From positions 1 through 28,042 of the forward strand of contig JAYEJL010000006.1 of the NCBI GenBank assembly GCA_034660555.1: 28,042 nt of DNA. Direction: 5' to 3'. The notes under the pieces were generated by a model that ran no database searches, was not told the origin of the DNA, and worked only from the letters and a program-made list of their open reading frames with translations. Shown here piece by piece: positions 11,123 through 15,776 of this stretch (position 1 is its first letter; each line of letters starts with the position of its first letter). The translations under genes were made by a program, and so were the position numbers. This DNA comes from Thermotogota bacterium. Its GTDB lineage: Bacteria > Thermotogota > Thermotogae > Petrotogales > Kosmotogaceae.

Positions 11123-12236
11123 TGTCATTGTTGTAGGAGCAGGGCCCGCAGGAATTTCAGCTGCCAAAGTGCTTTCTAATGCTGGACTTGATGTACTTCT
11201 GATTGATAAATCAGCTTTTCCGAGAGATAAAGGTTGCGGTGGAGGTTTAACTCCTCGTTCAATAAAGCTTTTAAAAAGGTTGTTTCCAGATTTCAACTAT
11301 CCAAAAAACGTCGTAAATACTTTTGAGTTTGGTCAAATTCAAAACAAATCGTTTAAACCGTTTCACAGGGTAAGAATAAAAAGTGATATCCATACGGTTA
11401 AGCGAAAGGATTTTGATAATTTATTACTTAAAGAAGCAAAAAAATATGGAATAAATTATTCTGTAGATAAAATAAATTCGATAAAAGTCGAAAACAACTC
11501 TTTTATCATTGAAGGTAATGAAAAATACAGCTCAGAATACGTTATTGTAGCTTGTGGTTTATTCGGACCGAAATTGTTGAAAATTCCTGATATTGAATTT
11601 GAAGTTCCCAGGTTTTCTTTTGTTTACCACACTTCAAAAATAACTGAAAGTAATATCATAAGAATTGGATTTTTTTCTGATGGATACTTCTGGCATTTTC
11701 CGCAAACAAAAGGTTCTACAACAGGAATGGGTTTCTATAACAAGAAAAATAATGATCTTCAAATGGCAAAAGAGATTTTGGGAGAAACAGATAAAAGGAT
11801 AAAAACAAGCGTCATTCCTTTATTTGAAGCTGAGAAATCCTTTAAAAATAACAACAGATTTGATGGTTGTCTGTTTGTTGGCGACAGTGCAGGGTTTGTC
11901 GATAACTGGACGGGCGAAGGAATAAGTTTCGCTTTAAAATCCGGCATGGAAGCTGCATCAGCAATAATTAAACATTTCACAAAACCCACCAGGATCAATG
12001 ATCAATACCTATACAATATTAGAAAAATGGCAAAACATTTGATACTTGCAGATTCTTTTAGAAAAACATTTTATGGGAATTTACCAGTTAATCTGAATTT
12101 GCTTAAAGAAAAAAGATTACTTAAGTTATTTATAAGTTATATAAGCTCATTTAGTAAGAGTGCTAATTATCTGCTTATGAAAAGCATTTTTGTAAGGACT
12201 CCAGATTCAGTTCACTATTTTCAAGATACTGAATAG
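11109..12236 (+). CDS. geranylgeranyl reductase-family FAD-dependent oxidoreductase
   Basis: DVIVVGAGPAG, FPRDKGCGGGL, RKDFD, GYFWHFP, VGDSAGFVDNWTGEGISFALKSG. Confidence 0.85.
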   Translation: MKRHDVIVVGAGPAGISAAKVLSNAGLDVLLIDKSAFPRDKGCGGGLTPRSIKLLKRLFPDFNYPKNVVNTFEFGQIQNKSFKPFHRVRIKSDIHTVKRKDFDNLLLKEAKKYGINYSVDKINSIKVENNSFIIEGNEKYSSEYVIVACGLFGPKLLKIPDIEFEVPRFSFVYHTSKITESNIIRIGFFSDGYFWHFPQTKGSTTGMGFYNKKNNDLQMAKEILGETDKRIKTSVIPLFEAEKSFKNNNRFDGCLFVGDSAGFVDNWTGEGISFALKSGMEAASAIIKHFTKPTRINDQYLYNIRKMAKHLILADSFRKTFYGNLPVNLNLLKEKRLLKLFISYISSFSKSANYLLMKSIFVRTPDSVHYFQDTE

Positions 12237-12931
12237 ATCTTACTTTTAATAAAATCTTCGTTTATAGCACCATTTACGAGTTTCACCTTGCGTTCTCCAT
12301 AATTCATGGCAAATTCTTTATTATGAGTAACCATAACCACTGTCATACCAAGTTGTTTATTGATTTTCTCAGTAAGATCCATTACTTTTAGAGCGCTTTT
12401 TGGATCAAGCGATGCAGTATGTTCATCAAGCAAAAGTAATTTTGGCTTTGCTGCGATTGCCATCACCATTGCGAGAGCCTGTTTTTGACCACCAGAAAGT
12501 TCTCCAGCAAGAACATCTAACCTTTTTTCAAGTCCCAATTCCAAGTTTTTAAGCAATGTAAGCGTTGTATTAGAAAAATTACTGAATGTTAATCCTCTTA
12601 ATCCTTTTCTGGAAGAAATAATGAGATTTTCTCTTATGCTCAGATTAGAGAAAACGCCAGAATTTGGATCCTGATATACTCTACCAATTAACCTTGCAAG
12701 TTTTGCGGTACTTTTTCCGTTCATGATCTCTTCGTTCAATCTGTAAATTCCCGAATCAGGACTTATTTCTCCAAGAATGATCTTAAGTAATGTAGATTTT
12801 CCAGATCCATTGGGACCGATAACTACAACAAATTCTCCTTCGCTGATTGTCATATTGACATTGTTCAAAGCAACTGTCTCATTTGTCATTCCTCTATTAT
12901 AAACTACACTGATGTTTTTGAGTTCGACCAT
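12221..12931 (-). CDS. ABC transporter ATP-binding protein (COG1101-like)
   Basis: GPNGSGKST, RVYQDP, LSGGQKQ, LLLLDEHTASLDP. Confidence 0.93.
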   Translation of the reverse strand: MVELKNISVVYNRGMTNETVALNNVNMTISEGEFVVVIGPNGSGKSTLLKIILGEISPDSGIYRLNEEIMNGKSTAKLARLIGRVYQDPNSGVFSNLSIRENLIISSRKGLRGLTFSNFSNTTLTLLKNLELGLEKRLDVLAGELSGGQKQALAMVMAIAAKPKLLLLDEHTASLDPKSALKVMDLTEKINKQLGMTVVMVTHNKEFAMNYGERKVKLVNGAINEDFIKSKIYSVS

Positions 12932-13935
12932 AACTTTCTGACCTCCAATTTGAACGTTGACTTCCTTTTCTTGGAAAGAAGGCTTATACCGATCATTCCA
13001 ACTATAAATAATGCTGTTAATAGTTTCATGTCACTTGATCTAAAGCCAATTCTATACCCGTATCTCATTACTAATGCCAGGATTGCCTGATAAATTATGG
13101 CTCCTATAATAGGAGCCAATAAGCCAAACAGTATTTTTCTTCTTCCAAATAATATTTCACCAAGCATAACCATAGCCAATCCTGTTACAATCATTCCCTG
13201 TCCCATTGTTACATCTGAGAAACCACTATAAAGGGCAAATAATCCTCCACTTAAACCAACCAGTGCATTAGCAATAACAAATCCGAGAACAGCTATGAAG
13301 GTTTTGGGAACTCCAAATGCCTGCACACCATCAGGATTGCTTCCAAAACCTCTCATTACCATTCCCAGATCAGTCCTAAGAAAAATACCCATTAGAATTA
13401 CTACAATCAGCGCAAATAATAATAGAATGATTAGATTACCAAATGTTCCATCAGTAGAAAAAATATTATTTGATGTATTTGCATTTCTAGAAACCATAAT
13501 ATCTGATTTTGATTCATTAGTACTTTCTGCATCTCCAAACAAACCTGCTAATGGATCTTCACCTGTTATCTCTTCGTAACTCTTCATGGTATTTGTGATG
13601 TTAATACTGGGAATAGGAAGATTTGGACCGTTCATTATTCTTAGATTCACAGAATAGATCATGGTCATTACAAGTATCCCGGCCAGCAGGGGATTCACCT
13701 TTAGTTTTCTATGAATTAATGCTGTGATCATACCTGCAAGTCCTCCAAAAATGGCTCCTGAAAGTAATGCAGTTAATGCTGGAGTTCCAGTAATCAATAA
13801 ACTTACGCTAACCGCACCTCCCAGCGCAAATGAACCATCAACTGTAAGGTCTGGCATATTTAGTATCCTGAAGGATAAGAAGACTCCAAGAGCCATTATT
13901 CCCATTATCAAGCCTTGCTCAAAGATAGCTATCAC
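12904..13935 (-). CDS. ABC transporter permease (COG4120-like)
   Basis: FRILNMPDLTVDGSFALGGA, LLAGIL, DVTMGQGMIVTGLA, DMKLLTA; GTG start after GGGAG. Confidence 0.92.
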   Translation of the reverse strand: MIAIFEQGLIMGIMALGVFLSFRILNMPDLTVDGSFALGGAVSVSLLITGTPALTALLSGAIFGGLAGMITALIHRKLKVNPLLAGILVMTMIYSVNLRIMNGPNLPIPSINITNTMKSYEEITGEDPLAGLFGDAESTNESKSDIMVSRNANTSNNIFSTDGTFGNLIILLLFALIVVILMGIFLRTDLGMVMRGFGSNPDGVQAFGVPKTFIAVLGFVIANALVGLSGGLFALYSGFSDVTMGQGMIVTGLAMVMLGEILFGRRKILFGLLAPIIGAIIYQAILALVMRYGYRIGFRSSDMKLLTALFIVGMIGISLLSKKRKSTFKLEVRKLWSNSKTSV

Positions 13936-13939
13936 GTTA

Positions 13940-14920
13940 TCAACTCCCTGTTATTTCAACGCCTTCCATAACCAAAATATCTGCCCGATCGATTAAAGTT
14001 TCAGGCAAACTGATGTCCAGTGCTTCTGCAAGATCAACGTCAACATAAAGAACCAAAGAATCTGCTCCTACTATCTTCGATTCAATTTCTGAAGGATCTT
14101 TGCCCTGTAAAATTTCAAAAACTATCTTTCCCGTTTCTCTACCAACACTATAATAATTAAAGCCAAAACCTATCAGTCCTCCACCTCTTGCAACATCAAT
14201 GTCTGCCGCAATTAAAGGTACCTTATTATTTCTTGCTATATTACCTATAGATTCAATACTTGAAGCTGCCGTGTTATCTGTTCCAACATAAAGGGCATCA
14301 ACGTCAGAAATCAATGCATTAAGAGAAGAAATCATCTCTGGTGCAGTAGTACCTGTAATTTCGATTAACTCCATTACCAGTTCCTGACACGCTTCCTTTG
14401 CAAAATCTGTAATTACAGCTGAATTTGTCTCACCGGGATTATATATAATTCCTACAGTTTTAATATCAGGATCAATTAGTTTTATCAATCTGAACTGGGT
14501 TAGTACCGGAGTCATATCACTTATACCAACTACATTTCCTGAATTAAACCCAAAATTCTCAATTAATGAAGCAGCAATTGGATCGGTCACAGCAGAAAAT
14601 ACTATAGGGATATTCTTGATAACGTTCACACATGCTTGAGCTGAAGGCGTAGCAATTGCAACAACAACATCTGGCTTAATAGATAGAAAATGTTGAGCTA
14701 TCGAAACTGCAGTGTTCATGCTACCTTGAGCGCTTTGAAATCTAACTTCAAAGTCGGACCCCTGTACAAGCCCGTTGTCCTTTAGTTCATCTATGACACC
14801 CTCTCTCACAGCATCCAGTGCGGGATGCTCGACTATCGCTGTGATCACAATAAGATCTGTTGAAAATGCTGAAAATATCATTAGAAAAACAACTGCAAAA
14901 ACCAAAACCAACCTTTTCAT
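13940..14920 (-). CDS. ABC transporter substrate-binding protein, COG2984/TrpX-like (aromatic amino acid)
   Basis: IVEHPALD, AIATPSAQ, PIVFSAVTDP, GIIYNPGETNS, TDN motifs; signal peptide; start ATG 14920 after AGGAGGTG. Confidence 0.9.
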   Translation of the reverse strand: MKRLVLVFAVVFLMIFSAFSTDLIVITAIVEHPALDAVREGVIDELKDNGLVQGSDFEVRFQSAQGSMNTAVSIAQHFLSIKPDVVVAIATPSAQACVNVIKNIPIVFSAVTDPIAASLIENFGFNSGNVVGISDMTPVLTQFRLIKLIDPDIKTVGIIYNPGETNSAVITDFAKEACQELVMELIEITGTTAPEMISSLNALISDVDALYVGTDNTAASSIESIGNIARNNKVPLIAADIDVARGGGLIGFGFNYYSVGRETGKIVFEILQGKDPSEIESKIVGADSLVLYVDVDLAEALDISLPETLIDRADILVMEGVEITGS

Positions 14921-14935
14921 ACACACACCTCCTAG

Positions 14936-14970
14936 AATAAAAAAGAGGGTATCCGTTTTGGATACCCTCT
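14936..14970 (-). terminator. attenuator terminator in the 5' leader of the ABC operon
   Basis: Perfect 11-bp stem AGAGGGTATCC-AAAAC-GGATACCCTCT followed by TTTTTATT, immediately before the SD of the binding-protein gene. Confidence 0.9.
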
Positions 14971-15003
14971 CGTTATTAATCGTCTGACTATGCCATGGCA
15001 CAT

Positions 15004-15081
15004 TTAGGCAAAGCCACAAGAGGGCTTTGTCTTATACCAGTAAAAGTTAACAAATTGTGCCAGTCGCATTTGATCAGTCAT
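15004..15081 (-). CDS. attenuator leader peptide MTDQMRLAQFVNFYWYKTKPSCGFA (25 aa)
   Basis: SD GGAGG (15092-15088) 6 nt before ATG 15081; TTT-GTT-AAC-TTT-TAC-TGG-TAT cluster at 15054-15034; TAA 15006-15004. Confidence 0.82.
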   Translation of the reverse strand: MTDQMRLAQFVNFYWYKTKPSCGFA

Positions 15082-15107
15082 AATAATCCTCCAAAATTGC
15101 TTATCTT

Positions 15108-15137
15108 TTTATACCACAAATCGGAAGCAAAAGTCAA
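15108..15137 (-). promoter_or_regulatory. sigma70-type promoter of the attenuator/ABC operon
   Basis: TTGACT-18 nt-TATAAA with an extended -10 TG. Confidence 0.7.
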
Positions 15138-15284
15138 ATAACTGACGGACTATTACTAAAATAAAATATATTCCCGGCTCAAAAACATTAATATTAATAT
15201 GTTAATCAACAAATAGATAAGTAAGTTTATCCGGTTCAATCAAGATGATGATAAAACAAATAAACTAAAATGAGGGGTGAAAAG

Positions 15285-15776
15285 ATGATTAGCGAAAAAT
15301 TGGTTAAACTTATTAATGATCAGATCAAAGCTGAGCTTGAGTCTGAGTATATTTACCTTGCAATGGCAGTATGATGTGCAAAAGAGGGTTTTACTGGGGC
15401 ATATAGCTGGTTGGTCAAACAGTCTGAAGAAGAGCATGCACATGCAATGGAATTTATAGAATATCTCAAATCAAGTAATGCTGAGGTTATTATTCCTTCG
15501 ATATCAAAACCAGACACAAGTTTTGATTCTTTGCTTGATATTTTTGAAAAAGCCTTCGAACATGAAAGGTATATCTCTTCACGGATTTTCAAACTTGTAG
15601 ATAGTGCTGTTGAAGAAGATGACAAATTTACTTAAGATTTTCTTTCATGATATGTGGAAGAACAAAGAGAAGAAGAAACAACTTTCAATTTCGTCGTAAA
15701 GAAAATCAAGCTTGTGGGATCTAATATTCATATTCTAATGATGATCGATTCCATGCTCGCAAACAGAGAAGATTAG
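15285..15776 (+). pseudogene. ftn: non-heme ferritin with three in-frame stops
   Basis: SD GAGGGGTGA; MISEKLVKLINDQIKAELESEYIYLAMAV*CAKEGF...QSEEEHAHAM...HERYIS...DDKFT*DFLS*YVEEQREEE...LANRED. Stops are TGA 15372-74, TAA 15633-35 and TGA 15648-50; 163 codons, no frameshift. Confidence 0.92.

Follow-up and report, generated by a model that had tools for sequence, protein, structure and literature searches.

Introduction

In transcription attenuation of the Escherichia coli type, formation of the antiterminator is set by the position at which the ribosome stops (as presented in the relevant passages of the review PMC11802643). A leader peptide with mixed aromatic residues is known from aroR-aroF of Corynebacterium glutamicum, where, in the same review's account of Neshat et al. 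2014, a Phe-Tyr-Phe leader responded to limitation of Phe and not of Tyr. For aromatic amino acid uptake, the sections of PMC9382623 devoted to TrpXYZ of Streptococcus suis describe a tryptophan transporter induced at low Trp via a T-box, and solved binding proteins of this transporter family are given Phe (3LKV), Tyr (CD0873) and Trp (3LFT) as ligands in the portions of the structural literature drawn on here. We describe a leader in a 28,042-nucleotide stretch of DNA from a Thermotogota bacterium (Kosmotogaceae; contig JAYEJL010000006.1 of assembly GCA_034660555.1), henceforth termed the window, in which a short open reading frame (ORF) with a run of aromatic codons and an intrinsic terminator precede the genome's only aromatic ATP-binding cassette (ABC) importer of the TrpX/CD0873 family. 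Judged by its sequence and that of its relatives, this element is very probably a ribosome-mediated leader-peptide attenuator of the trpL/pheL kind, and it most likely turns on uptake when aromatic amino acids run short.

Results

Leader anatomy

The leader is read on the minus strand, and window positions are used throughout. It comprises the following features.

15137-15132, minus strand: -35 hexamer TTGACT, by direct sequence reading
Between the two promoter boxes, minus strand: spacer of 18 nt, by direct sequence reading
15113-15108, minus strand: -10 box TATAAA, with the preceding TGG (15116-15108) of the extended -10 type
15092-15088, minus strand: Shine-Dalgarno (SD) box GGAGG of the leader ORF, 6 nt 5' of the ATG
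15004..15081, minus strand: leader ORF of 25 codons plus TAA (ATG at 15081, TAA at 15006-15004), present in the ORF list
15054-15034, minus strand: regulatory codon run TTT GTT AAC TTT TAC TGG TAT, codons 10-16
15029-15009, minus strand: hairpin P1, located within the leader ORF, 7 bp with a loop of 7 and -8.7 kcal/mol at 37 C; proposed to act as anti-antiterminator or to cause pausing
15025-15016, minus strand: antiterminator 5' strand, formed by the end of the P1 5' arm and the P1 loop, pairing with 14973-14964
14973-14964, minus strand: antiterminator 3' strand, overlapping the terminator 5' arm, pairing with 15025-15016
14971-14943, minus strand: stem of the intrinsic terminator, with loop 14959-14955 and a T-run through 14939, -20.1 kcal/mol
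14932-14928, minus strand: SD box GGAGG of the binding-protein gene, whose ATG is at 14920

In codons 10-16 (F V N F Y W Y) five of the seven are aromatic (F, F, Y, W, Y), and the terminator stem consists of 11-12 pairs (12 including a terminal G-U), six of them G-C, closed by a loop of five and followed by the T-run. The locus thus combines the parts by which leader-peptide attenuators are recognized: a short ORF with SD box and start codon, an intrinsic terminator between this ORF and the first structural gene, an antiterminator that is mutually exclusive with the terminator, and a cognate codon run, here of aromatic codons before the gene of a binding protein in whose family structures with bound Phe, Tyr and Trp have been solved. 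A mechanically called ORF (13940..15019) takes as its start a TTG within the leader ORF, crosses the terminator and continues into the binding-protein gene. Relatives align from residue 1 of the protein that starts at ATG 14920, and this ATG is therefore the real start; stretching the binding-protein ORF through the terminator is a likely annotation error, corrected here, of a kind by which automatic annotation could hide an attenuator. A previous sequence-only reading of the window had placed the promoter, the SD box, the 25-codon ORF, the aromatic run, the terminator and the SD box of the gene where we find them, and was likewise right that the ORF track covers the terminator, that the leader stands before an ABC importer and that the genome probably belongs to Thermotogota.

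Conservation across relatives

We searched 61 related genomes and found the binding protein in 39, in one of them as a weak match only. The comparison set holds 45 genes with E <= 1.6e-67 from 38 genomes and 14 genera, all orthologues or paralogues of the window's gene; eight weaker matches (20-28% identity) were left out. An SD-preceded short ORF with an aromatic run, followed by a terminator, stands before 44 of the 45. All of the first 30 loci have the short ORF, the SD box, four to seven aromatic residues in seven and the terminator, and leader and terminator recur at 14 of 15 further genes, the exception being a paralogue (L032) in genome G056. Rule-based automatic detection returned the same leaders. 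SD-like boxes stand before the chosen leader start in the relatives, and the terminator ends 15-100 nt before the gene start used, which is approximate for loci L031-L045. Upstream of 38 of the 44 related leaders lies a box pair TTGA[CT]N and TAnnnn with a 16-19 nt spacer, and the TGG-TATAAA of the window is also present in L001-L012, L015, L016, L018 and L019.

A comparison with named contigs, which reached Thermotogota and one contig labelled Patescibacteria, found the leader at 44 of 46 loci, the other two having less than 240 nt of upstream sequence; it overlaps the 38-genome count in many genomes, and the two counts are not independent. The named relatives comprise uncultured Kosmotogaceae/Petrotogales metagenome-assembled genomes (MAGs, 86-93% identity), Mesotoga, Petrotogaceae, Pseudothermotoga and Fervidobacterium. 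On the contig labelled 'Patescibacteria group bacterium' (JALNZW010000027.1, locus L089), leader and binding protein are nearly identical to those of the Petrotogaceae-like locus L037; this contig is probably mis-binned.

The aromatic run is read as codons. Across 28 unique related runs, 148 aromatic codons fall in frame 0, against 27 in the +1 and 20 in the +2 frame, and for 12 genus representatives 0-26 of 500 shuffles attain the observed run. In four congeners the leader ORF is open and in frame with a variable N-terminal third, and the run is kept through synonymous TAC/TAT and AAC/AAT changes. The leaders of the relatives are between 18 and about 50 codons long, and peptide conservation beyond the run is confined to the parts in which the RNA pairs.

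Terminator and antiterminator

The P1 5' arm and loop are shared with the antiterminator strand. In the window, the antiterminator (15025-15016 with 14973-14964) has 10 bp including two G-U pairs and reaches -13.5 kcal/mol as a bare helix, compared with -20.1 kcal/mol for the terminator and -8.7 kcal/mol for P1. In each lineage, a stretch located 3-20 nt past the run can pair with the 5' arm of that lineage's own terminator, even though terminators differ between lineages: the mean duplex energy is -19.7 kcal/mol with the own arm and -12.2 kcal/mol with dissimilar foreign arms. Of 1594 comparisons, 121 had a foreign arm that equalled or surpassed the own one, and L040, where the second, downstream terminator was picked, accounts for 40 of the 121. 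Between its W-W-W leader and the gene, this locus (G042 contig C10) has two terminator hairpins in succession.

Fourteen sequences could be aligned on the window's scaffold for covariation analysis. P1 and terminator together are 92.9% paired with seven pairs changed on both sides, and none of 500 shuffles attained their paired fraction or their covariation score; slid controls were 36-53% paired. Taken separately, the P1 helix has 90.3% of cells paired and three pairs changed on both sides, the terminator helix 95.5% and four. The antiterminator is 89.3% paired in this sub-family, with six invariant core pairs, and its support comes from the between-lineage comparison of sequences given above.

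To ask what a ribosome would do to these structures, transcripts cut at the terminator loop were folded with 28 nt statically masked as ribosome. With the ribosome placed on each aromatic codon of the window in turn, the predicted fraction of the terminator arm engaged in the antiterminator is 0.91, 0.91, 0.91, 0.91 and 0.73, and with the ribosome at the stop codon it is 0.27. Under a stalled ribosome, the antiterminator forms in all 44 leaders of the relatives. The distance from the A-site to P1 in the window is 25 nt for F10, 13 nt for Y14, 10 nt for W15 and 7 nt for Y16; by this geometry, Y14, W15 and Y16 would be best placed to open P1.

Importer operon

The genes behind the leader encode the three parts of an importer.

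13940..14932 including the SD box, ATG at 14920, minus strand: substrate-binding protein of 326 aa, PF04392 at 1.6e-72 (244.7 bits)
12904..13935, minus strand: ABC permease, PF02653 at 1.8e-25
12221..12931, minus strand: ABC ATPase, PF00005 at 7.5e-31

A single PF04392 gene was found in the window's genome (95.5% complete). Its product has the ABC_sub_bind domain and is similar to solved aromatic binders, as in the TrpX / CD0873 / VC_1101 family; relatives in the PDB are 3lkv (6.8e-63), 6hni (2e-57) and 3lft (8.3e-42). The nearest NCBIfam model is NF041285 (TrpX), matched at 233.6 bits and under its cut-off of 390, and the window's binding protein is related to the TrpX equivalog, not the same named protein.

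Paralogous leaders and binding pockets

Some genomes contain two or three tandem binding-protein genes, with a separate leader of the same scaffold for each gene. In G009, G013 and G017 the second gene has a Trp-only run (W-W-W), as does a gene in G042, and one Fervidobacterium leader reads Y-G-W-W. Three MAGs have three successive genes whose leaders carry, in order, Y-A-Y-Y (Tyr), a mixed run and F-A-F-A-F (Phe); these tandem runs align at homologous codon positions. Altogether, single-amino-acid leaders are W-only at L033, L035, L034 and L040, Tyr-only at L031, L056, L058 and L059, and Phe-type at L074, L076, L078 and L044, and the genes behind them are often tandem neighbours of one with a mixed leader. 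The gene behind a mixed leader (L045) in G042 (contig C5, 131198-132328; L096) contains one in-frame TAA and may be a pseudogene that retains its leader.

In the parts of the CD0873 paper that concern the pocket, Glu-263 is described as binding the tyrosine hydroxyl, with Ala there in Phe and Trp binders, and Tyr-279 as a second selectivity position, with Gln in the Trp binder. Our alignment maps these residues to D240 and Y256 of the window protein, the offset being checked at Val-235/Pro-236; the Trp-binding SP1069 has Ala and Gln instead. Position 240 is Asp in every gene with Tyr codons in its leader except L093 (Asn), and Phe in six of the eight genes with Tyr-free leaders (three W-only, three Phe-only). 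A codon-sensing attenuator matched to its transporter predicts this pattern. Given that the related genomes are not independent, the match of leader and pocket sequences is a lead, not a statistic.

Aromatic biosynthesis in the genus

Chorismate synthase, TrpA and prephenate dehydratase were not found in the window's genome (95.5% complete), with controls positive in 14 of 14 named genomes, and none of the five genomes that represent the window's genus gave a chorismate synthase. A dependence of the genus on imported Phe, Tyr and Trp is suggested, which would be useful for cultivating this uncultured group, and one importer under a mixed run would be enough for all three amino acids. Some genera with the attenuator, Mesotoga-like and Petrotogaceae-like ones, do have chorismate synthase, and the attenuator is therefore not tied to auxotrophy.

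Other observations

A second candidate attenuator lies in the same genome (L106 190-340; G000 contig C148, about 2189-2340). Its ORF has 27 codons, and five in a stretch of six specify Asn. The terminator that comes next has a 5' arm complementary to the post-run segment (this segment resembles the terminator 3' arm), and beyond it lies a gene for a 311-aa class II synthetase-like protein of the AsnA type (PF00152). This suggests that the leader-attenuator design is in general use in this organism.

The divergent neighbour of the importer operon, a ferritin-like gene at 15285-15776 on the plus strand, has three in-frame stops.

15372-15374, plus strand: in-frame TGA
15633-15635, plus strand: in-frame TAA
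15648-15650, plus strand: in-frame TGA

The gene is intact in four congeners, with W, E and W at the three stop positions, and the copy here is either a pseudogene or an assembly error.

Discussion

A model for attenuation of aromatic amino acid uptake

The leader can be read as follows. Transcription would start about 20 nt 5' of the leader ATG, and a ribosome would translate the 25-codon leader. With charged tRNA-Phe, -Tyr and -Trp plentiful, it would run to the TAA and cover 15025-15016; after its release P1 would form, the terminator at 14971-14943 would fold and transcription would end before the binding-protein gene. If charged aromatic tRNA were scarce, the ribosome would stall in F-x-x-F-Y-W-Y and open the base of P1, so that the freed 15025-15016 could pair with 14973-14964, i.e., the terminator 5' arm, and the polymerase would read into the importer genes. 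Joint sensing of Phe, Tyr and Trp is suggested by the codon content. Besides locating the leader, the sequence-only reading had proposed looking for a conserved aromatic short ORF in orthologous operons, for covarying stems and for a T-box or riboswitch that would account for the terminator; the recurrence of the leader, the double-sided changes in P1 and terminator and the Rfam scan described below all favour its interpretation, and each refuting condition it named that could be checked came out on its side.

Several observations weigh against this model. Aromatic-rich short ORFs are common by chance in an A+T-rich genome such as this one (G+C 36.4%), in which 493 of 38,479 short ORFs (1.3%) attain five aromatic codons in seven, so the run alone is weak evidence. 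The leader promoter was not listed by a consensus promoter scan, whose rule demands T as the last -10 base where the window has A; we retain it because 38 of 44 relatives have the box pair in the same place. The covariation of the antiterminator within the 14-sequence sub-family is weak, its paired fraction being attained in 37 of 500 shuffles, because its core is invariant. In the folding model, the terminator-arm fraction in the antiterminator is 0.91 also in a window transcript without any ribosome, and of the 44 leaders of the relatives, 40 form the antiterminator in the absence of a ribosome and 31 do so while one is at the stop. As far as a static model can tell, then, the on state is well explained, and the off state is explained in the window, not in most relatives. 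Since the antiterminator forms without a ribosome or with a terminating one, termination must rest on kinetics, on P1 or on a ribosome in the antiterminator loop. Most relatives have their stop codon in the stretch that separates the antiterminator strands, and there the terminating ribosome is supposed to hinder closure of the helix while P1 forms first.

The remaining difficulties concern specificity. As in the case of aroR, a leader with mixed codons may respond to some of the amino acids concerned and not to others. Behind two Tyr-free leaders, L040 and L044 (genes L094 and L095), position 240 is Asp. The window protein keeps Y256, the equivalent of a Tyr that is said to exclude tryptophan in CD0873 and VC_1101, in the parts of the literature consulted for these proteins, and Trp transport by this protein is uncertain for this reason.

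Alternative explanations

Three other accounts of the locus were weighed. The leader could be free of regulatory function, its short ORF encoding a small expressed peptide or having arisen by chance, and its terminator, a leaky one, only shielding the operon from transcription that comes from upstream. Beyond the 1.3% of short ORFs that are equally aromatic-rich, 7 of 500 dinucleotide shuffles of the 173 nt 5' of the terminator yield an ORF as aromatic as that of the window. What is rare, however, is the combination of SD box, run, terminator and gene start, not the run: in a genome-wide scan for an SD-preceded short ORF, a strong terminator and an SD-preceded gene start, the window locus was the only case with an aromatic run. 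A further run with a strong terminator, on contig C92, was set aside as chance; it lies at the 3' end of a gene, with neither an SD box nor a downstream gene. The leader recurs at 44 of 45 genes in 14 genera, which excludes chance; moreover, the post-run segment tracks the local terminator arm and the codon set shifts with the paralogue, and we regard a leader devoid of regulation as scarcely credible. A switch made of RNA only, i.e., a riboswitch or a tRNA- or protein-binding leader with an incidental short ORF, would fit the good folding of the leader RNA (it beats 200 of 200 shuffles, z = -4.1), the conserved hairpins and the RNA-only T-box used by Firmicutes relatives of the transporter. 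It is nevertheless very improbable. The conserved signal consists of codons in one frame together with an SD box and a start, nucleotide changes keep the aromatic identity, and the region from start to run varies in sequence and length yet stays open. No Rfam family exceeds its threshold either: a permissive scan of 14600-15500 (E <= 10) gave sub-threshold matches only and no Trp_leader, Phe_leader, T-box or riboswitch. The best match, L20_leader, reached 24.1 bits against a threshold of 58.7, rests mainly on the terminator and was rejected. No T-box (RF00230) was found in the leader or in the window's genome, and among 61 relatives a single one had a T-box, its genome being 6% contaminated.

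With an arrest peptide of the TnaC kind, the response would run in the other direction. Here it is aromatic amino acid in free form, bound in the ribosomal tunnel, that would stall the ribosome, and the importer would be induced by its substrate and not by starvation. Trp and other aromatic residues are followed by basic residues in the leaders of many lineages, the importer could feed catabolism, and the direction of the response in the attenuator model is itself deduced from the sequence. Against this stand the runs of 3-8 cognate codons and the paralogue-specific W-, Y- and F-only runs, which are a mark of charged-tRNA sensing, and the lack of biosynthesis genes in the genus in the searches made, which favours control by starvation. 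Neither peptide conservation beyond the sensed residue nor Rho-dependent termination, as expected for the TnaC type, was observed at these loci: from lineage to lineage the peptide differs except in its run, RNA pairing explains why codons downstream are conserved, and termination is of the intrinsic type. We therefore consider an arrest peptide unlikely.

A wider proposal, at present somewhat doubtful, is that Thermotogota possess a family of codon-programmable attenuators. One scaffold would have been recoded as Trp-, Tyr- or Phe-only or as mixed together with the importer pocket, the window would hold a three-in-one sensor for an aromatic auxotroph with a single importer, and the off state would in most members be steric, with the terminating ribosome in the antiterminator loop, where E. 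coli trpL relies on masking of the strand. If this is true, the leader predicts the substrate of the transporter, and leader codons become a free specificity label for a vaguely annotated ABC family.

Comparison with described systems

Full-text literature searches, with older subscription papers outside their scope, returned no leader-peptide attenuator described in Thermotogota or before this transporter family. The mechanism as such is classical and textbook, and the locus is a tidy extension rather than a surprise, one that places classical leader-peptide attenuation in a deep-branching, partly thermophilic phylum. Like trpL-trpEDCBA and pheL-pheA / pheST of E. coli, the window element has an SD-preceded ORF, a cognate codon run, an intrinsic terminator and an exclusive antiterminator. 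It differs from trpL and pheL in that it would control an importer and not a biosynthetic or synthetase operon, in that its run mixes three amino acids, and in that the strand pairing with the terminator is the 5' arm and loop of the first hairpin, not the 3' arm. Further differences are the stop codon inside the antiterminator loop in most Thermotogota relatives, the host phylum and the absence of a match to an Rfam leader family. With aroR, as far as the review describes it, the window shares a mixed aromatic leader peptide that would govern an aromatic amino acid function by ribosome stalling; the target of aroR is a DAHP synthase and its leader has no Trp codon, whereas the window element precedes an ABC importer and its run includes F, Y and W. 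The S. suis trpXYZ operon, in the sections of its source referred to above, encodes the same transporter family, and the template of its structural model, 3lft, is a PDB relative of the window protein. Its T-box likewise makes the choice between terminator and antiterminator depend on tRNA charging, as we propose for the window, whose leader and genome differ in lacking a T-box. That the attenuator has replaced a T-box, as the sequence-only reading put it, is an evolutionary reading; in functional terms, the Thermotogota attenuator would take the part played in Firmicutes by the T-boxes of this transporter family.

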